Assembly (NCBI GenBank): GCA_964514305.1
Contig: CAZEQD010000004.1
Coordinates: forward strand, 20 to 64,019
Reading direction: 5' to 3'
From: an uncultured Eubacteriales bacterium
Lineage (GTDB): Bacteria > Acidobacteriota > Aminicenantia > Aminicenantales > Aminicenantaceae
Length of the DNA stretch: 64,000 nucleotides
In this document: piece after piece, positions 7,340-64,000 of the stretch
Layout: the number at the start of each line of letters is the position of its first letter
How positions within the stretch are numbered: position 1 is the first letter of the stretch
Program-made: the position numbers and the translations under genes
The notes under the pieces: generated by a model
Told to the model about the DNA's origin: nothing
The model's input: only the letters and a program-made list of their open reading frames with translations
Databases searched by the model: none

Positions 7340-7531
7340 ATGGGAAAAGCAAAGATTAAACTTGACAAAAATTTAGTGGACAAAGTAAAAAAGATGGCGG
7401 CCATGGCCGGCTATTCTTCTCCAGAAGAGTTCATAACTCACTGTTTGGAAAAAGAAATAGCAAAGCTTGAAGAATCCGATTCTGAAGAGGAAATTAAGAA
7501 GAAATTAAAAGGCCTGGGCTATATATCATGA
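7340..7531 (+). CDS. Small ribbon-helix-helix-like (CopG/Arc/MetJ-type) DNA-binding protein, tentative
   Basis: 63 aa. 'KIKLDKNLVDKVKKMAAMAGYSSPEEFITHCLEKEI' fits a beta-strand / helix / G-x-S turn / helix RHH pattern. RBS 'gaggtgaag' upstream. Confidence 0.4.
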   Translation: MGKAKIKLDKNLVDKVKKMAAMAGYSSPEEFITHCLEKEIAKLEESDSEEEIKKKLKGLGYIS

Positions 7532-7537
7532 ATCGGA

Positions 7538-7823
7538 AGTCGTAAATCGTGAATAGTGAACATTTAGCTGTAGGGTCCGCTGTCCTCAGCGGACCGCCAG
7601 GAAAAGTAAAAGGTAAGGAGCGGGATGTAAGACGTGAATCGTAAGACGTAAATTGTGGAGGGTAAAGATTTATTGGTTTAAAGTTGAAAGTTTAAGGCGG
7701 GAAAGAAGTGAAGAATGAGGAGTAAGGAGTGAAGAGAATGTTATTTAACATCTCACGATTTACCACTCACTACTCACTACACACGATTTACGACTTACGA
7801 TTTACTATTCACGATTTACGATT
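7538..7823. repeat. Composite palindromic element B1: 23-bp terminal inverted repeats, inverted arrays of ~10-11-bp CGTAAATCGTG/ACGATTTAC-type motifs, internal 9-bp GC hairpin
   Basis: TIR-L 7538-7560 'agtcgtaaatcgtgaatagtgaa' pairs with the reverse complement of TIR-R 7801-7823 (21/23 match). ACGATTTAC recurs four times in the right arm and its complement in the left arm. Hairpin ggtccgctg/cagcggacc at 7574-7595. Confidence 0.6.
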
Positions 7824-7849
7824 CAACTCTAATAAGGTACAAAAGAAAA

Positions 7850-8677
7850 ATGTGGTTTTTTAATTATTCATGGGGCAAAATTTTTGAATTTATCTTTTTC
7901 CCCTTTCGCCATCTAAACCCTTGGTGGGGCATGATCTTCATCTCTTTACTTACTGGCCTTTTTATGCTGGCTGTCTTTAAATATACTTCTAATCAAAAAG
8001 GAATTAGTCAAGTTAAAAATAAAATAAAAGCTCATTTACTTGAAATACGTCTATTTAAGGATAATTTTGCTCTCTCTCTTAAAGCTCAAGGCAACATCCT
8101 TCGCTATAACCTTAAATATATCAGCTATTCTTTTAAACCCATGCTGGTTATGATCATTCCTTTGATTTTAATTTTAATCCAACTTAATCTCTGGTTTGGC
8201 TATCACTCCCTTGAACCAGGACAAAAAGCAATAGTCAAAGTGAAACTAAAAAAAGAATATAATCCTCTTGATTTAAAGTTAAAAATAGATCCATCACCAG
8301 GTTTTCGGGTTGACAGTCCTCCTTTAAGGATAGAAGAAGAAAAAGAAGTAAATTGGCGGATCCAAGCTAAAAAGAAAGGCATCTATTCTTTGGTCATAAA
8401 AGTTGACAATCAAAGCTATCAAAAAAATGTAGCCATTAGCCAAAATTCATTAACTAAAATTTCCCCAGCCAAAGTTAATAAAAATTTTTGGGCAGAGTTG
8501 CTTTACCCTGGGGAACAACCTCTTTCTTCGGATTCTCCCCTGGAATCGATAGAAATAACCTATTCTTCCAAAAAAATGAATCTTTTTGGCCTCCATCTCC
8601 ACTGGCTTATTGTCTATTTTGTTTTGTCAATAATTTTTGGCTTCGGACTTAAAGGTTTTCTTAAGGTACAAATCTAA
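7850..8677 (+). CDS. Hypothetical membrane protein
   Basis: Multiple hydrophobic helices; no recognisable motif. Confidence 0.45.
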   Translation: MWFFNYSWGKIFEFIFFPFRHLNPWWGMIFISLLTGLFMLAVFKYTSNQKGISQVKNKIKAHLLEIRLFKDNFALSLKAQGNILRYNLKYISYSFKPMLVMIIPLILILIQLNLWFGYHSLEPGQKAIVKVKLKKEYNPLDLKLKIDPSPGFRVDSPPLRIEEEKEVNWRIQAKKKGIYSLVIKVDNQSYQKNVAISQNSLTKISPAKVNKNFWAELLYPGEQPLSSDSPLESIEITYSSKKMNLFGLHLHWLIVYFVLSIIFGFGLKGFLKVQI

Positions 8678-10489: not shown

Positions 10490-10851
10490 TTTACAATCTA
10501 ATTTTCATCCTATTTATATGAATCAATCACATAAAAATTTCAACTGATTTTTTAAATAATATACCCTATATTTTCATGATAATTAAGAAGATAAATTGCA
10601 GGCATGAAAGGCAAAGTCGATTTTCCCTCGGCCAAGCCCATAAGGGTGAGTGGGAGACCTTGTCAAGACTGGAGGGAAACCGACGACTTAAAAGCCGTTT
10701 CCTTTGAATATGAGACAGCCCAGAAATGAGGATAATCCCTTAAGATAATGGACCACAGCCGGCCGACTAGCACCATATTTCCTAGAAATTTCTCGTTGCC
10801 AAAAAAGAATATGTTTATAATAATAGGAAAAAGAAAAGCGAAGGAGGAAAA

Positions 10852-13796: not shown

Positions 13797-13904
13797 TAAT
13801 TGAAGATTGGTAATTAACTTGGATTATTCATAAAAAATGCCGATGTTTTATTTGGAATTTTACATAGATATGAACAAATCAAAATTATTCAGCCAATTCT
13901 ACGA

Positions 13905-14010
13905 AGAATGCTTATAACTAGTTGCTGTCCAGCCGAATCCCATAGTGATGGGCATGGGGGTCTTTGGCGATAACGGATGGGAATCGACGTTTTTAAAGAA
14001 GACTCCTCTA
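13905..14010 (+). repeat. Family-A dispersed repeat, degenerate copy A3
   Basis: 'tccagccgaatcccatagtgatgggcatgggggtctttggcgataacggatggg' aligns to the cores of A1 (39165-39215) and A2 (63778-63826). Confidence 0.45.
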
Positions 14011-14120
14011 AGTATTGGATATTACTGGAATAAAAATGCTTCGCTAAGCTGAAAATTTATTTGCTCTCTTATATTCTTTTTGATATAGTCTCCATAAGAC
14101 AAAACAATCGAGGAGGTCTA

Positions 14121-15098
14121 ATGAAAAAACTATCAACAATCACTATTATTTTAGCCTTAATTTTCTTCTCCTTTGTCTCCTGTGGAAAAAAAGTTACAGC
14201 CCCTAAAGCGGGCTCGGCTTCAGCCAATGATATGCTTAACTTTGTTCCTGTCGAGGCAAAAGGCGTTATCATGATTGATTTTCATCGAGCCATGTCGACC
14301 GAAATAGCCAGAAAAGCCATTGAGGAAGATAAAAATTACAAGAAATACCAGGAGTTTGTCAATAAAACAGGAATTGACCCTCAAAAAGATGTCTACTTTG
14401 TGACTGTGGCCGTAACTGAAGCCATGGAAAAAGGCAAAACCAAAGGTTCAGCTATTATCAACTTAAAATACAACAAGGAAAATCTTCTTTCTTTAATAAA
14501 ACAACAAGAAGGAAAATTAACAGAAGAAGATTATAATGGCTTCACCATTTATTCATCAAAAAAAGAAGATGAAGGAGGCTGTTTTTCATTTCTGGACGAT
14601 TCCAATGCAGTGGTGGGAAATGAAGCTGGCGTGAAATCGGTGATTGATGTTCTCTTGAAAAAGAAAGACAACGTTTTTAAGAATCAAGCCCTTTCTTCTT
14701 TGATGGCCAAAACTAACAAAGAAGCCATGCTCTGGGGGGCCTTTATCATCTCTCCTCAAGCCATTGAAAAAATTACTTCCCAAAATCCAATGCTCAGTAA
14801 TCTCAAAGCTGTTGATGCTGCTATCCTTTATTTTGATTATCAAAACAAAAATATTATGGCTGAAATAAAAGTAATGAGCAGCGATGAACAGAAAAATCAG
14901 CAGATTGCCGACCTTCTTAACGGAGTCAAAGCTATGGGAGGAATGGCTGCTGCCAAGAAGCCTGAAATAGGTGAATTTATCAATAAAATCGAGATTTCTT
15001 CAGCTCCTGATCATGTCAAAGTTTATGCTAAAATTCCAGAAGAGCTGATAAATAAGCTCAAAGAGATGAAGGCCACTGAAAAAAAGACATCTGACTAG
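14121..15098 (+). CDS. Hypothetical lipoprotein
   Basis: 'MKKLSTITIILALIFFSFVSCGKK' lipobox. RBS 'gaggagg' upstream. The 14061 start in the ORF track is probably too far upstream. Confidence 0.5.
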   Translation: MKKLSTITIILALIFFSFVSCGKKVTAPKAGSASANDMLNFVPVEAKGVIMIDFHRAMSTEIARKAIEEDKNYKKYQEFVNKTGIDPQKDVYFVTVAVTEAMEKGKTKGSAIINLKYNKENLLSLIKQQEGKLTEEDYNGFTIYSSKKEDEGGCFSFLDDSNAVVGNEAGVKSVIDVLLKKKDNVFKNQALSSLMAKTNKEAMLWGAFIISPQAIEKITSQNPMLSNLKAVDAAILYFDYQNKNIMAEIKVMSSDEQKNQQIADLLNGVKAMGGMAAAKKPEIGEFINKIEISSAPDHVKVYAKIPEELINKLKEMKATEKKTSD

Positions 15099-25777: not shown

Positions 25778-25834
25778 TTTGAAGACTATACTAAATTAGT
25801 TTTCTTTGTGCAAGATAAGAGAAGAACCGCGATA

Positions 25835-25905
25835 GCTAATAATCAATAAAGTTATATTTAGAGGCAGCAATTTCAAAAAAAGATTGCCAGTTGCAGCTAT
25901 CTTTT
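25835..25905 (+). repeat. Family-A dispersed repeat, 5'-portion-only copy A4
   Basis: 'gcgatagctaataatcaataaagttatatttagaggcagc' matches the A1 start 'gcgatagctaataatgaatgaggtcatatttataggcagc'. The core is deleted. Bounded by gatagct...agctatc. Confidence 0.45.
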
Positions 25906-25967
25906 GGTAAGCTAAAAGCCCAGGCATTTCAGATTCAAATAATTGAACAGGACTGAAAGGAATTATA

Positions 25968-36007: not shown

Positions 36008-36379
36008 TTTATTGGCGTTTTTTAATAGGGTAAACTTTCCATCTTTTCCTTCCGAAAAAAAATTTTAGACCAAGTTTTGCTCCTAGCCTCATTCTATTCA
36101 AGCTAAAATCAAGAATTCTTAATATTTAGAGAATTCTTCTTAAAGGAGTCGGTTTCCATTCATCCTCGCCAAATAGCCTCATCAATTACTGTGCCAGGTT
36201 TTGGCTGGATGACTATCGATTCCGCCTTACCTACCTGGAGGCAATTGATCTTCTCATTTATGCCAGAAATAAAGAAGCTTACAAAAACTCTTTATTTTTT
36301 GACAAAAAATTCAAGGTTAAGTATAAATATAATGTCCCAGGAATTAAGGCTAAAAATTATTGATCGGGGGTAAAAGGCT

Positions 36380-37351
36380 ATGCATCGCAAGCCATTAAAT
36401 TGGATATTAATCTTACTGTTCATGTGGCTGGCCAGCAGTTTGAATTTAAAAAGCCAGGAAATAGATCCTTTTTATCTTAATCTTTTAAATCAAGGAGAAA
36501 AATCATTCTCAGCTGGTAATTATAAACAAGCCATTAAAGAGCTGGAAATTGCTGCCTTCGGGCTTCTAGAAGAAAATTTATTAAGAGCTAAAGCCTATGT
36601 TTATTTAGGTTTAAGCTATTATAATTTAAGAGATCTGGCTAAAAGCAAAAAATACCTAATTAAAGCCAAAAAATGCTTGGGCCAAGCTGATCCACAACAA
36701 TTAAATATAGATGAAACCCTTATTATTGAATTTAACAATCTGGTAAATTCTTTCCAGCTAACGGAAAAGCAAAAAATTAATGCCGAAAAAAAGGTCAGTT
36801 CATTGAATTCAGTTACCAAGACTTCTGGAAGAGAAGAAAAAGCTAAAAGAGAAACAGCCACCAGAATTGAAGAGCTTAGAAGAGGTATAAAAGCAGATCC
36901 TCGGAATATATCTCTCCATTACGAGCTCTATCAAATTTACCTCGATCAAAATAATATAAAAGAAGCCAAAAAAGTCCTCAAAGACTTAGCCAAGAAAAAT
37001 CCTGCAGAAATTAATAGTTATTATTTACTTGGAAAAATTGAATTTAAGGACAGAAAATATAAAGAAGCCCAACAGGCTTTTGCCAAAATGTTAAATATAT
37101 CTCAAAGAGTCAAATTTGATGAAATAAAAATAACTGAAGCTAAAGCCTATCTGATTCTTTCTACCTATTTTCGAGGAAAAAGAAAAGATACACAAAAAAT
37201 GGTGGCAGACTGGAGAGAAGAGTTAACTCCAGCCAAAATTAGTCTATTATCATTAGATATTGGTGAAAAAGAAATACTGCAAAAAATAATAAATACTTAT
37301 AAAATCCGGGTCAAAACTGAAAAAGATAATTTTCAATTTTCATCTTTTTAA
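36380..37351 (+). CDS. Secreted TPR-repeat protein
   Basis: Signal peptide; TPR-like helical repeats. Confidence 0.5.
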   Translation: MHRKPLNWILILLFMWLASSLNLKSQEIDPFYLNLLNQGEKSFSAGNYKQAIKELEIAAFGLLEENLLRAKAYVYLGLSYYNLRDLAKSKKYLIKAKKCLGQADPQQLNIDETLIIEFNNLVNSFQLTEKQKINAEKKVSSLNSVTKTSGREEKAKRETATRIEELRRGIKADPRNISLHYELYQIYLDQNNIKEAKKVLKDLAKKNPAEINSYYLLGKIEFKDRKYKEAQQAFAKMLNISQRVKFDEIKITEAKAYLILSTYFRGKRKDTQKMVADWREELTPAKISLLSLDIGEKEILQKIINTYKIRVKTEKDNFQFSSF

Positions 37352-38961
37352 AAATAAAAAAGAAAGCCAAAATCAATGGTTAAAAATATATTCTGCTGTA
37401 GCCACTCCACCCGGTTTAAATTGTGAGCTAAACCCAGAGCTCCATTTAGGCCAACTCTACCCAATCTCAATTCAGCTCCGCTTAAGATAGCTACTCCCCA
37501 AAGAGTTTTTTGTCTGTAATCATAAACAAAACTGTAATACCATATCTCTTTGAAGATCTGAGCTGCTTCGACACCTAAGCCACCAAGCTGGAGATCAAAA
37601 TAGAAAGCTATTGGATCCATTTTTAAAGGTAAATAATACTTAATCCCTCCACTAAAAAGAACAACACTTTTTACCCAGTTGGAAGAGGAATAAATAAAAG
37701 AACTGGGATAATAACCGGCTCCACCATGAATAGAAATTCCTCTTTTAGTATTGAATTGGATAAAGATTCCTAGGCCGCCTTGAGACTGCCCATATCCTAT
37801 TCCTAAGGAAAAAGGGTAATACTTTTTTTTATTAATTTTAACTGCGAAAGGATGTAATTTTTTCTGGATGATTGGTTGATTAGCTTTTTTTCCTCTCTTC
37901 CTATTTTGAGGAAAAGGGGAAAAATCTTTTTCTTCTTTGAATTTCTCGGCAGAAAAATGCTCAACCAGGCCTGATGATGAAGGAAGGATCTTAGTCTCTT
38001 TCTCTATAACCTCTTTTTCTTGGTTAGCTGCCCTTAAGGCCAAAAACGGCCTGGCTCGAAAATAATTTCTAGCTTTAAGACTAGTTAGTTCTCTTCTTTC
38101 TAATGCCTGAGGGAAGTCTACTATTTTTAAGAAAAAAGCATCTTCATCCTCTGAAAAAGCAGAGATTTTAAGGCCCTTAAACAGATTTTCCTTTGTTTCA
38201 AGAGGTGTTTTCTGATTACAATCTAAGGAAACTTCGATAAGTTTGGTCTGAATTTTGTTTTTCTCATCTTTTTTTGCTGTTTTAAAAAATCTGTTTACCT
38301 CTATTTCCCCTGGGCTTTTTACTGCTCTTCGGAAGACAAGCTGATTTCCTTCTCTAAAGGCAAAGGGCAATTTATTTAAATGTAGCCTTAGAGAAGGCAG
38401 GGCAGTAGCTATTATATTCTGGTATGATTCTTTTTTTTGAGTAAAAGATTTTAAACTAGGGAAAGTTCTAGCCAAGGTGTGAGGAGCTGGATCAAGAGAG
38501 ACAAATTCTCTTTTAAAAAGTGACGTGGGCAGAACGGTCATTTTGTCCAAAAAAGTTTTTTGGTCCTTCTTTTTCTCAATTAATAAAGCATTTTTTTTCT
38601 TAAGTGATAAATTATCTCGCTTTTTTCTTGAATCAGCCTTTAGGTTCGCTTCAAATTGTAAATCCCTTTTACTTCCTTCAAAAAATTCAATTAGCAAGCT
38701 ATGAACAAAGCCGCTAACTTTACAATTCTTTTTTGACGAACGAAAGGTTACATAATACCACTCATTTCTTATTTTCCCAGCTTGAAATAAAGTAAGAATA
38801 GTTCCCTTGTTAACAGTTTCTATTAAATAGCTGCGGCTATTAGGCTCTGCATAAATATTAGCTTTATCAGCAACGACAACAGCTTTTCTGACTTGAGTAG
38901 AAGATAAATTAAGAACCAGTAATAGACAGGCAGAAATGAGCATAAAAATAATTTTTTTCAT
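37348..38961 (-). CDS. Hypothetical outer-membrane beta-barrel protein
   Basis: Signal peptide. C-terminal alternating amphipathic strands ending in 'FLFYF'. Confidence 0.45.
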   Translation of the reverse strand: MKKIIFMLISACLLLVLNLSSTQVRKAVVVADKANIYAEPNSRSYLIETVNKGTILTLFQAGKIRNEWYYVTFRSSKKNCKVSGFVHSLLIEFFEGSKRDLQFEANLKADSRKKRDNLSLKKKNALLIEKKKDQKTFLDKMTVLPTSLFKREFVSLDPAPHTLARTFPSLKSFTQKKESYQNIIATALPSLRLHLNKLPFAFREGNQLVFRRAVKSPGEIEVNRFFKTAKKDEKNKIQTKLIEVSLDCNQKTPLETKENLFKGLKISAFSEDEDAFFLKIVDFPQALERRELTSLKARNYFRARPFLALRAANQEKEVIEKETKILPSSSGLVEHFSAEKFKEEKDFSPFPQNRKRGKKANQPIIQKKLHPFAVKINKKKYYPFSLGIGYGQSQGGLGIFIQFNTKRGISIHGGAGYYPSSFIYSSSNWVKSVVLFSGGIKYYLPLKMDPIAFYFDLQLGGLGVEAAQIFKEIWYYSFVYDYRQKTLWGVAILSGAELRLGRVGLNGALGLAHNLNRVEWLQQNIFLTIDFGFLFYF

Positions 38962-39110
38962 TATTTTATCTCTTATTTTTAAAATTTTAGTTAGATCTGG
39001 TCAGCCGTCAATCGCCTCTCTAGGTGAAAAGGGCGATGATATTGTCCTCTCCTTAATCACCTCTGTCGATGACCTAATTTGTCTTAGTCAACCAAGAAAA
39101 CGTCCCTAAA

Positions 39111-39270
39111 ACTGCGATAGCTAATAATGAATGAGGTCATATTTATAGGCAGCTATTTTCCTCCATCCGAGCCCATAGTGCTGGGTGGGCTGGTCTTGGC
39201 GAGGATGGAAGGAAATTAATGCCAAATTTCATTTCTTTATGAAGAATTTCACTCTTCACGCTTTTGGAGA
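39111..39270 (+). repeat. Family-A dispersed repeat, full copy A1 (contains a conserved 30-codon ORF and nested stems)
   Basis: ~80% identical over ~150 nt to 63731-63890. The ORF 'MNEVIFIGSYFPPSEPIVLGGLVLARMEGN' is at 39127-39219. Confidence 0.6.
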
Positions 39271-39292
39271 TGCTGCCGGCGGCCAGCTCTTA

Positions 39293-39321
39293 TTGACAGA
39301 TAAAAAAATGTAACATATACT
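39293..39321 (+). promoter_or_regulatory. Sigma70-like promoter TTGACA-17-TATACT for thiC
   Basis: Hexamers at 39293-39298 and 39316-39321, about 50 nt upstream of the thiC ATG. Confidence 0.45.
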
Positions 39322-39371
39322 ATGGTGTCTAATCATTAAAATTAAGTCTTTAGAATCGATTGTGAAAACTT

Positions 39372-40679
39372 ATGACTCAATTAGAAGAAGCCAGAAAAGG
39401 AAATATAACTCCAGCCTTAAAAATAATCGCTGAAGAAGAAGGCCTCTCTTGCCAGACTTTACTCGAGCTGGTTGCTCAGGGAAAAGTTGTTATTCCTTGC
39501 AATCCCAACCATCCTATTTCTCGGCCGGCAGGCATTGGTTACAATCTAAAGACCAAGGTTAACGTTAATATCGGAACCTCTGTCGATTTTCCTCAAATAG
39601 AAAATGAAATTAAAAAAGTAGAAGTGTCTCTAAAATATGGCGCCGATACATTGATGGACTTGAGCACAGGCGGGGATATAAAAAAAATCCGGAAAACAAT
39701 TCTAGCTAAAGCCCCCATTCCTCTAGGCACAGTACCTGTTTATCAAGCTGCTATTACAGCTATCGAACATCGAGGCTCAATTGTAGACATGAAAGTGGAT
39801 GATCTTTTTTCTATTATTGAATCTCAAGCTAAGGAAGGGGTTGACTTCATGACAGTTCATGCTGGCTTGACTTCGAAAGGAATTGAAAGGTTAAAGAATC
39901 AGGGAAGAGTAGCTGACATTGTTTCTAGAGGAGGTGCCTTTCATTTAGCTTGGATGCTTCATAATCAAAAAGAAAATCCGCTTTATGTTCATTTTGATCG
40001 CTTATTGGAAATAGCTGCAAAATACGATGTAACTCTAAGCCTTGGCGATGGACTAAGACCGGGCTCAATTCTTGATGCTACAGATCGCCCTCAAATAGAA
40101 GAGCTTCTAACTTTAGGTGAACTGGTTAAGCATTCTTGGGAGCAGAACGTTCAGGTTATGGTCGAAGGTCCTGGCCATATTCCTCTTGACCAAGTAGAAA
40201 TGAACATCAAACTCCAAAAACGTCTCTGTCATGATGCTCCTTTCTACGTCTTAGGCCCATTAGTTACAGATATTGCCGCTGGTTATGACCACATTGTCTC
40301 AGCTATTGGAGGCGCTATAGCTGCCGCTGCTGGGGCAGACTTCCTATGTTATGTCACTCCTGCAGAACACCTTGGTTTGCCCTCAGTCGATGATGTTAGA
40401 GAAGGTCTTATCGCTTCCAAAATTGCTGCTCACGCAGCCGACATTGTCAAAGGGATAAAGGGGGCCCTTGATAGAGATTATAAGATTTCAGAAGCAAGAA
40501 AAAATCTTGATTGGGCAAAGCAAAGCCAACTAGCCATTGACCCTTATAAATTTAAGGATATACGAAAAAAAAGAAAGTCAAGATCAGCGGCCTGCTCCAT
40601 GTGCGGAGATTTTTGTGCTCTTCGCATCGTCAGCGAATTCTTAAATTCCAAGGGAGCAGCCGATGACATCCGCTTCTAA
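39372..40679 (+). CDS. thiC: Phosphomethylpyrimidine synthase
   Basis: Full-length ThiC with C-terminal '[11 protein letters not shown]'. Confidence 0.9.
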
Positions 40680-47649: not shown

Positions 47650-47716
47650 TAATTTTCACTTTTCTCTTCTTACTTCTCACTGTTTACTATTCACTGTTTA
47701 CTTTTTACTCTATTAT
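47650..47716 (+). repeat. Family-B element, solo arm copy B2
   Basis: 'ctgtttactattcactgtttactttttactctattatgc' aligns with B1 right end 'cgatttactattcacgatttacgattcaactctaataagg'. Adjacent hairpin ctgctat-gg-atagcag at 47606-47621. Confidence 0.5.
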
Positions 47717-63156: not shown

Positions 63157-63506
63157 GAAAAATCATTTAAACTTTTTTTATTATTTAGCTTAATTAACTT
63201 TTTATAAATTTCTTTTTTTATATCTTATCCTCTGCTTCTAGATTGAATAGAGCTACATGGAGAGAGAGACTTTGATTGAATTTATATCAAATATTTAATT
63301 TATATCAAATATTTTATTAAATTATATATTTAAGTAAAAAATAGATCACATCATAATCACTCCAATTAAGAAAAGAAAATATAGTTAACAAACTTTCTTC
63401 CTTTCGAGCTAGCAATAATTCTCAAGAATTGAAGATAATTTGCTATCAAAAATAACTTCGCAAAAAAGAAATGGCTAAAATATCCATTTAAACATATATA
63501 AGAAGT

Positions 63507-63581
63507 GCGCCTGACAGGACTCGAACCTGCGACACAGGGATTAGGAATCCCTTGCTCTATCCATACTGAGCTACAGGCGCA
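63507..63581 (-). tRNA. tRNA-Arg (anticodon CCU)
   Basis: A 75-nt cloverleaf: 7-bp acceptor GCGCCUG/CAGGCGC, D-arm GCUC-AGUAUGGAUA-GAGC, anticodon arm AGGGA-UUCCUAA-UCCCU, T-arm GCAGG-UUCGAGU-CCUGU, discriminator A. CCA is not encoded. Confidence 0.85.
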
Positions 63582-63730
63582 CCTTCTAAATTCTTAGCAT
63601 ATCCAGAGTAATTGATCTGGATAACCTCACACTTTTTATATTTTTTTAAGACTGAAGCGTCTATTAATTTACCAATTTATAGCCTTTTTTTCAATCAGAT
63701 GGTCCTGGCGATAAGCATGTCCCAAACTGT

Positions 63731-63890
63731 TATAGCTAATAATGAAGAAGATAATATTTATAGGCAACGATTTTATTCCATCCGAGCCTATATTGGTGGG
63801 ATGGGATTTGGCGAAGATGGAGGAAAATCGTTGCTAAATTTAATTTCTTTGGGAGGAATTTCACTTATCACGGTTTTTAGAATTCTTCCC
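63731..63890 (+). repeat. Family-A dispersed repeat, full copy A2
   Basis: Aligns with A1 across ~150 nt. Perfect 10-bp outer stem caacgatttt/aaaatcgttg and inner ccatcc/ggatgg. ORF 'MKKIIFIGNDFIPSEPILVGWDLAKMEENRC'. Confidence 0.6.
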
Positions 63891-64000
63891 TCCTGGCTTA
63901 ATCTTGGCTTCCTAACTTAAATCTACAAGAGCTTTCCTCTAAAGGAATACAAGTTGTGATTAAGTTTGTAGATTGAAGAGAATTTCAGCTTATCGCTTGA

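Follow-up and report, generated by a model that had tools for sequence, protein, structure and literature searches.

The intergenic region upstream of thiC in the 64-kb stretch of DNA analysed here (the window) contains a sequence which recurs between other genes of the same organism, and the question is whether such repeats encode a small protein, give rise to a structured RNA or represent mobile DNA. A sequence-only reading had described a family of four copies of a repeat of approximately 160 nt, all on the plus strand, with nested stems and an ORF of about 30 codons, and had left open a choice between a small-protein family, a type I toxin-like peptide, a structured small RNA and the conserved end of a mobile element. 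In our opinion, the repeats probably (with a probability of about 0.6) constitute an old, lineage-restricted family of non-autonomous, MITE-like DNA transposons of approximately 180 nt with no coding capacity. The arguments are as follows.

The repeat is a non-coding sequence of about 180 nt, dispersed between genes. All four copies reported earlier were found again at or near their positions and on the plus strand. Two of them are of full length: A1 (39095..39277, +; 183 nt; nhmmer E=6e-57; 86.8 bits with the covariance model) and A2 (63710..63889, +; 180 nt; nhmmer E=7.5e-53; 83.8 bits). A3 (13875..14043, +; nhmmer E=1.6e-7 and 3.6e-29; 59.9 bits) belongs to a divergent subfamily, and A4 (25814..25915, +, limits approximate; nhmmer match at 25825-25874, E=2.6e-7) is internally deleted. 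The observation is real, but the copies had been under-counted, and the family is not restricted to one strand: both nhmmer and the covariance model detected in the window the divergent copy A5 (10553..10739, +; nhmmer E=9e-10, or 2.5e-37 with the wider model; 74 bits) and the copy A6 (36097..36283, −; nhmmer E=1.5e-4 and 3e-31; 62 bits), and, outside of it, a seventh copy, A7 (L023:5841-6019, minus strand), 8 kb from the left end of the window in the same genome. Together with two further independent copies from a related metagenomic organism (locus L003, with L005 as its second contig, and locus L009, with L002 and L010 as further contigs), the six copies of the window and A7 make nine distinct copies. 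They occur on both strands, at a density of about one per 10 kb, and every one of them is intergenic. The nhmmer profile was built from four full copies and a wider model was used afterwards; the covariance model of the core retrieved the same copies as nhmmer and no others. An exact-seed repeat search of the window ranked A4, A1 and A2 together as the first of its direct-repeat families (D1), and a degenerate pattern of the loop matched only A1 and A2 in the window, the chance expectation being 0 (0 in 100 shuffles).

The length of the element between its ends is 180-187 nt, and the distance between the flanking direct repeats described below (180-183 nt) replaces the earlier estimate of approximately 160 nt. 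The identity of about 80% over some 150 nt, claimed for A1 and A2, holds for a 77-nt block (83%), and over all 189 aligned nucleotides it is 73%. Among the copies, pairwise identity ranges from 50 to 77%, the value for A6 versus A1 and A2 being only about 50%, and at least two or three subfamilies can be distinguished; A3 and A6 have a distinct 3' tail in common. Metagenome contig L004 carries a copy identical to A3. As to A4, the lack of the core, noticed previously, was borne out, and both ends are still present: this copy retains the left terminus (GATAAGAG...) and the 5' arm as far as GGCAGCAATTT; of the outer stem it keeps the remnant GATTGCC, and it has the right-end-like TTTTGGTAAGCT. 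The low identity of the copies, the existence of at least two or three subfamilies and the occurrence of one internally deleted copy provide grounds to regard the family as old.

The earlier proposals included a family of peptides of about 30 aa, either small proteins or type I toxin-like, starting at the conserved AATAATGAA. The reading frames on which it was based do exist: in A1 an ATG-initiated ORF of 30 codons occupies positions 39127..39219 (+), its A2 equivalent lies at 63742-63837, and the two (30-31 codons) are in the same register, with a length difference of 3 nt, so that the extra in-frame codon noted for this pair is correct. Elsewhere, however, the copies have indels of a single nucleotide. 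Thus, in L009/L002 and in L003 a 1-nt deletion in the loop places the C-terminal half in another frame, and in A7 the ATG is present but the core is in yet another one. The ATG itself is kept in only four of the nine copies, being replaced by ATAATTAAG in L003 and A5 and by ATAATCAA in A4, and A3 and A6 have no corresponding ORF. The differences between the A1 and A2 frames had been considered mostly synonymous or conservative; in fact they fall almost evenly on codon positions 1, 2 and 3 (8/6/7) and result in 3 synonymous and 13 non-synonymous codon changes, i.e., there is no codon-position bias. Moreover, several frames are open on both strands across the GC-rich core, and a search with the longest ORF variant among 5.8 billion predicted proteins returned one near-identical sequence only. 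Since the ORF is not conserved among the copies, which break it freely, the very behaviour that the sequence-only reading had named in advance as an argument against coding, we reject the coding readings: a peptide family of this kind is hardly credible, and the ORF, judged spurious, is a chance reading frame without coding constraint.

The element ends in short, imperfect inverted repeats, GGTAAGCATC on the left and GATGCTTTC on the right. In the better-preserved copies the left end follows the consensus G(G/A/T)TAAGC(A/T)T, which recurs in complementary form on the right, giving termini of the type GGTAAGCAT/ATGCTTACC. Individual left ends read GGTAAGCATC, GATAAGCATG, TTTAAGCATC and TGTAAGCTTC; the right ends, taken as reverse complements, read GAAAGTATCC, TGAAAGCATTC and GTGAGCATTTCC and match the left ones at 6-8 of 10-12 positions. 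In addition, the family model matches its own reverse complement with E-values down to 7e-7, which means that the palindrome extends over the whole element. Immediately outside the inferred ends lie direct repeats of 8 bp, 180-183 nt apart. They were evaluated by a permutation test with offsets allowed, and as the ends had been placed by eye beforehand, the following significance values are inflated: in L009 the repeats are identical (ATTCCTGC on both sides, 8/8, P=5e-4), in A2 they agree at seven of eight positions (GTCCTGGC, 63702..63709, and CTCCTGGC, 63890-63897, +; P=0.012), and in L003 (CTTAACTT and CTGAATTT) and A7 (TTCCTTGA and TCCCCTGA) at six of eight (P=0.086 in each case). The pairs flanking A1 (GTCAACCA and GGCGGCCA) and A6 (AAAGAGTT and AATGAGGC), with 5/8 matches, are uninformative. 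Left and right repeats agree better within one copy than between copies. Three of the duplications are nevertheless alike (TCCTGGC, TTCCTGC and TTCCTTGA), having the motif TCCTG in common; instead of having arisen independently, they could belong to a direct repeat at the ends of the element or reflect a preferred target.

Sites without the element were found in sister lineages. In contigs L011, L012, L016, L017, L034 and L035, originating from several samples, ThiC is 87-88% identical to that of the window and the gene order around thiC is kept; the intergenic region upstream of the gene is, however, 213 nt long versus 410 nt in the window. Its flanks align, on the left up to ...CTCTGTCGATGAC and on the right from the promoter block TTATATTGACAGATA...TATACT, and the A1 block of about 190 nt is missing between them; relative to these empty sites, the extra block extends to about 39290. 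A model search of the A1 sites in the sister lineages revealed no copy. The native thiC promoter (TTGACA-17-TATACT, 39293..39321, +), situated about 15 nt past the IRR terminus at 39277, is kept in the empty sites and hence is not part of A1. A6 is likewise missing from its syntenic site in L011 and L016: the spacer there measures about 130 nt as opposed to about 350 nt in the window, and the promoter of the TPR gene downstream of this site is conserved in the sister lineages. The absence of so diverged a copy as A6 implies that several source subfamilies with the same core coexisted and were active after the split from the sister lineages. The plus strand of the empty A6 site (L016:380-400 and its equivalent in L011) contains GCTGTCCAGCCAAA, resembling the 5' arm of the A3/A6 core (GCTGTCCAGCCGAA); unscored by the models, it could be a chance similarity or a relic.

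Several other features of the thiC region deserve mention. To the left of A1, the block 38985-39068 (GTCAATCGCCTCTC.AGGTGAAAAGGGCG.TGATATT...ATCACCTCTGTCGATGAC) is near-identical in the window and the sister lineages, in contrast to the diverged spacer adjacent to it, and overlaps the predicted minus-strand promoters of a gene of unknown function encoding 537 aa (37348-38961). In a near-identical strain (L013:8006-9590, 99.9%) this gene is split by a deletion of about 29 nt into ORFs of 90 and 395 aa. Searches of the region preceding the gene of the short ThiC (435 aa), 39290-39372 in the window, revealed no TPP riboswitch in the host or in three relatives (L011, L018 and L024). A1 itself was also considered as a TPP riboswitch and rejected: it has no Rfam match, is located upstream of the promoter and is missing in relatives.

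The window is part of a metagenome-assembled contig of 172 kb from an uncultured Aminicenantes-related bacterium; the nearest named homologues of ThiC (80-83% identity) are labelled Candidatus Aminicenantes. A search for the loop pattern in 185,579 species-representative genomes, the host genome not being among them, gave a single chance match in a GC-rich gammaproteobacterium, and a metagenome scan gave four loci only, from two samples. Neither a scan of viral contigs nor a BLAST search of plasmids and phages produced a match to the repeat, and the core model found no copy in a total of about 90 kb of contigs from relatives with ThiC 83-84% identical (L018, L024-L033). Since there is no real match in the species representatives or in these relatives, the family is confined to a narrow lineage.

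As for the genomic context, six of the nine copies (A1, A4, A5, A7, L003 and L009) are located in divergent intergenic regions, and A3 and A6 between co-directional genes. A1 lies between the conserved block ending in ...CTCTGTCGATGAC and the thiC promoter; A2, between the gene of tRNA-Arg(CCT) (63505-63580, −) and the 3' terminus of a gene encoded on the minus strand (its right-hand context was read from contig L019); A3, upstream of the ORF 14061-15098; A5, between the genes of a nitroreductase (−) and an M1 peptidase (+), both named from Pfam; and A6, between a 139-aa ORF (+) and the TPR gene (+), just upstream of the promoter of the latter, TTGACA-17-TATAAA. Seven of the nine copies point toward the next gene, which is not significant (binomial P about 0.18). 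Together with the location of six of the nine in divergent promoter regions, this orientation hints, below statistical significance, at selection or at an insertion preference.

Repeats of other kinds were noticed as well. Between fur and the tRNA-Arg gene there is an AT-rich tandem repeat of 18 nt (ATTTAATTTATATCAAAT, 3.3 copies, 63275-63333). To the right of A2, all available assemblies of the genome break 150-250 nt beyond the end of the window (63985-64000; L019:1-162), inside a minus-strand gene whose product shows, in its last 53 residues, a weak similarity to the Cas_Cmr5 C-terminus (E=0.059); a break shared by all assemblies suggests that a repeated sequence is located there. Arrays of a 7-nt unit occur at 7531-7572, 7627-7653 and 7752-7825, with CGTAAAT/CGTGAAT on the left and the complements ACGATTT/CACGATT on the right. 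The two sets are inverted relative to each other and enclose a G-rich centre of about 180 nt within the intergenic DNA before the ORF 7850-8677, and a similar array is present at 47653-47709. These heptamers look like a second repeat system unrelated to the family under discussion and are possibly iterated protein-binding sites.

The nested stems reported previously are indeed present. According to individual folds and the consensus, the centre of A1 forms a long imperfect hairpin (39148..39223, +; 63763-63835 in A2) with an outer stem GGCAGCTATTTTCC/GGAAATTAATGCC, an inner stem TCCATCC/GGATGGA and a G-rich loop, which may have the potential to form a G-quadruplex; the outer stem of A2 is perfect. 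A second, small hairpin is found near the right end of A1 (TGAAGA-ATTTCAC-TCTTCA, 39240..39258, +), followed by a weak T run; its counterpart in L003 is GTGAGGA-ATTTCAC-TCCTCAC. This second hairpin (helix 3) is 71% paired, with two pairs changed on both sides, and has no terminator score. The family could alternatively be a multi-copy structured small RNA or a cis-acting hairpin module of RNA or DNA, possibly one that a mobile element carried or gave rise to. The functional part of such a module would be the central hairpin with its G-rich loop, acting, for example, as a small RNA, as a leader or stability element of mRNAs or as a protein-binding site upstream of promoters. The central hairpin is in fact the best conserved part of the element both within the main subfamily (79% identity versus 62-69% at the termini) and between subfamilies (64% versus 40-47%), and compensatory changes are seen in its small inner hairpin CCYA/TGGG and in the second hairpin. 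Pair counting in eight related sequences, some of them only 50% identical, gave 79.7% paired cells versus 75.5% in shuffles (2 of 500 reach the observed value) and a covariation score of 0.207 versus 0.152 (5 of 500), with seven pairs changed on both sides, but unconstrained related sequences exceed this shuffle control in 5-25% of cases; in slid registers the pairing falls to 33-51%. The prevalent orientation of the copies toward the next gene and the position of A1 and A6 directly upstream of promoters also speak in favor of such a module.

Nevertheless, a number of observations make this explanation rather unlikely. An Rfam search around A1 and A2, both at gathering thresholds and at E<10, gave nothing meaningful, only tRNA reaching the gathering score, and neither a sigma-70-type promoter nor an intrinsic terminator was predicted inside A1 or A2. 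The covariation term of RNAalifold for eight distinct copies was unfavourable (+1.47). The plus strands of A1 and A2 fold modestly better than shuffles (z of -1.8 and -2.4), but the minus strands fold at least as well (-2.3 and -3.4), and G-U cells on the plus strand (17) are about as numerous as A-C cells (14), the minus-strand equivalents of G-U, so that neither strand stands out as that of an RNA. A1 and A6 lie upstream of the promoters of their neighbours, i.e., outside the transcripts, A6 and A2 face no gene start, and the same genes with the same promoters do without the element in the sister lineages. Thus, the earlier suggestion of a structured small RNA finds no support, the pair counts being only marginally above their controls.

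The better conservation of the central hairpin in comparison with the termini does not fit easily. If an element depends on a transposase, its tips are normally under the strongest constraint, so this pattern, the opposite of the expected one, is an argument against a MITE, as are the shortness and imperfection of the inverted termini (6-8 matches of 10), the likeness of three of the duplications and the coexistence of several source subfamilies implied by A6. The pattern might be accounted for if the central 75-nt hairpin with its G-rich loop (GAGCCCATAGTGGTGGGTGGGG..TTGGCGA) were a functional module that selection has maintained in subfamilies with nearly randomised arms. Such a module could be a small RNA borne by a mobile element or a DNA or RNA site acting on neighbouring promoters; the latter is proposed because most copies are directed toward a gene start lying a short distance downstream. 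We consider selection on the hairpin of this kind unlikely. Two strains compared at the L009 locus show 2 differences within the element, 4 within the spacer next to it and 9 within lpxK, too few for a decision.

The conservation of the centre above that of the tips, as well as the presence of conserved internal and sub-terminal hairpins and the location of five of the six window copies on one strand, would also suit an element transposed as a single-stranded hairpin, i.e., a PATE derived from IS200/IS605 or a repeat of the REP/BIME type, the hairpins of which would be the structures recognized by a Y1 HUH transposase. Families of these types, however, have neither target duplications nor terminal inverted repeats, and the present copies have both, in the form of flanking 8-bp repeats and inverted termini. 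Furthermore, there is no conserved tetra- or pentanucleotide in the 5' flanks, which end in AACCA, CTGGC, CCTGC, AACTT, CTTGA and GTTTT, no Rfam match to IS605- or HEARO-type RNAs was obtained, and tnpA, tnpB and RAYT genes are absent from all loci read. We therefore regard single-strand transposition as quite improbable. Another possibility is that the repeats are not mobile at all and represent relics of an ancient duplicated intergenic segment or of a gene, which were spread by recombination and deleted in the sister lineages. The age of the copies (50-77% identity) and the fact that no transposase was seen are compatible with this idea, but it hardly explains why nine sharply delimited copies, with defined termini and with direct repeats on their flanks, occur at unrelated loci, or why two independent sites are empty in several sister contigs with conserved flanks, and we find it very improbable. 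Integron attC sites, diversity-generating retroelements (DGR), CRISPR and fragments of group II introns were dropped on the basis of sequence features.

The MITE-like interpretation is preferred because the repeats are small and non-coding, have inverted termini, are flanked by duplications, are dispersed in many copies, are lacking at empty sites and include decayed and deleted members. Their size well under 500 bp, inverted repeats, target duplications and differences in presence between related genomes are all in agreement with what defines MITEs. The suggestion that the repeat belongs to a mobile element thus proved to fit best, with the correction that the repeat, having both termini and target duplications, is a whole miniature element and not the conserved end of something larger. 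From the dispersal and the structure of the copies we infer that the family spread by transposition. Insertion into intergenic DNA would have duplicated 8 bp of the target, and mobilisation would have required a transposase supplied in trans. No gene of a transposase and no full-length parent element was found in the approximately 72 kb of the host genome read. The mobilising enzyme may have been a member of the IS66 family, as suggested by the GTAAGC terminus in combination with the 8-bp duplication. The small ORF and most of what was taken for RNA structure would then be by-products of a palindromic sequence, and the internal deletion in A4 and the diverged subfamilies could be the remains of a decaying transposon family.

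Comparison with known systems supports this picture in part. Intergenic repeats consisting of a long palindrome, with duplications of TA or otherwise very short, are represented by ERIC/IRU of enterobacteria and Correia/NEMIS of Neisseria. The present family is like them in being an imperfect palindrome over its whole length, foldable on either strand, with a conserved central inverted repeat, in its intergenic location beside promoters and in having variants with internal deletions. It differs from them in the absence of sequence similarity, in its 8-bp direct repeats and in the phylum of the host. Closer parallels exist with bacterial MITEs, for one of which, MITEPsy1 of Pseudomonas syringae, mobilisation has been shown experimentally (PMC3189936). 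Common to both are a length of 100-250 nt, the lack of a constrained ORF, terminal inverted repeats and target-site duplication, the occurrence of several dispersed, mostly intergenic copies limited to close relatives, and the presence of degenerate or deleted members. Unlike bacterial MITEs, the copies described here come with no cognate IS in the loci read, are much more diverged (50-77% identity), and have short termini and a centre conserved better than the ends.

As for the putative partner, PMC11946415 (citing the TnCentral paper of Ross et al., 2021) and PMC12888890 give inverted repeats of 20-30 bp starting with GTAAGCG and direct repeats of 8 bp for the IS66 family. The terminus (G)GTAAGC(A/T)T, with its complement at the other end, and the 8-bp direct repeats resemble this arrangement. 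On the other hand, only 6 of the 7 hallmark bases are present, preceded by one extra base, the recognisable inverted repeat is about 10 nt long instead of 20-30, and tnpA, tnpB and tnpC were not seen in the loci read. Besides, the same hexamer GTAAGC lies within inverted repeats of the Tn3 type (MITEPsy2). The similarity of six bases and of the direct-repeat length suggests a link with IS66 that should be treated as a lead only, given the short repeat, the absence of transposase genes from the loci read and the presence of GTAAGC in a Tn3-type repeat as well.

In practical terms, the analysis removes a false call of a small gene or toxin and identifies a family of repeats that will break assemblies and confuse annotation in metagenome-assembled genomes (MAGs) of Aminicenantes. 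If the minority reading, according to which the central hairpin is under selection, were true, the family would be an example of a structured module distributed by a transposon next to promoters and a lineage-specific regulatory repeat of Aminicenantes spread by transposition. In general, the repeats look like an element of an ordinary kind from an organism that has been studied little, and they would be the first mobile-repeat family, with two dated empty sites, to be described for a lineage of phylum rank without any cultured model.
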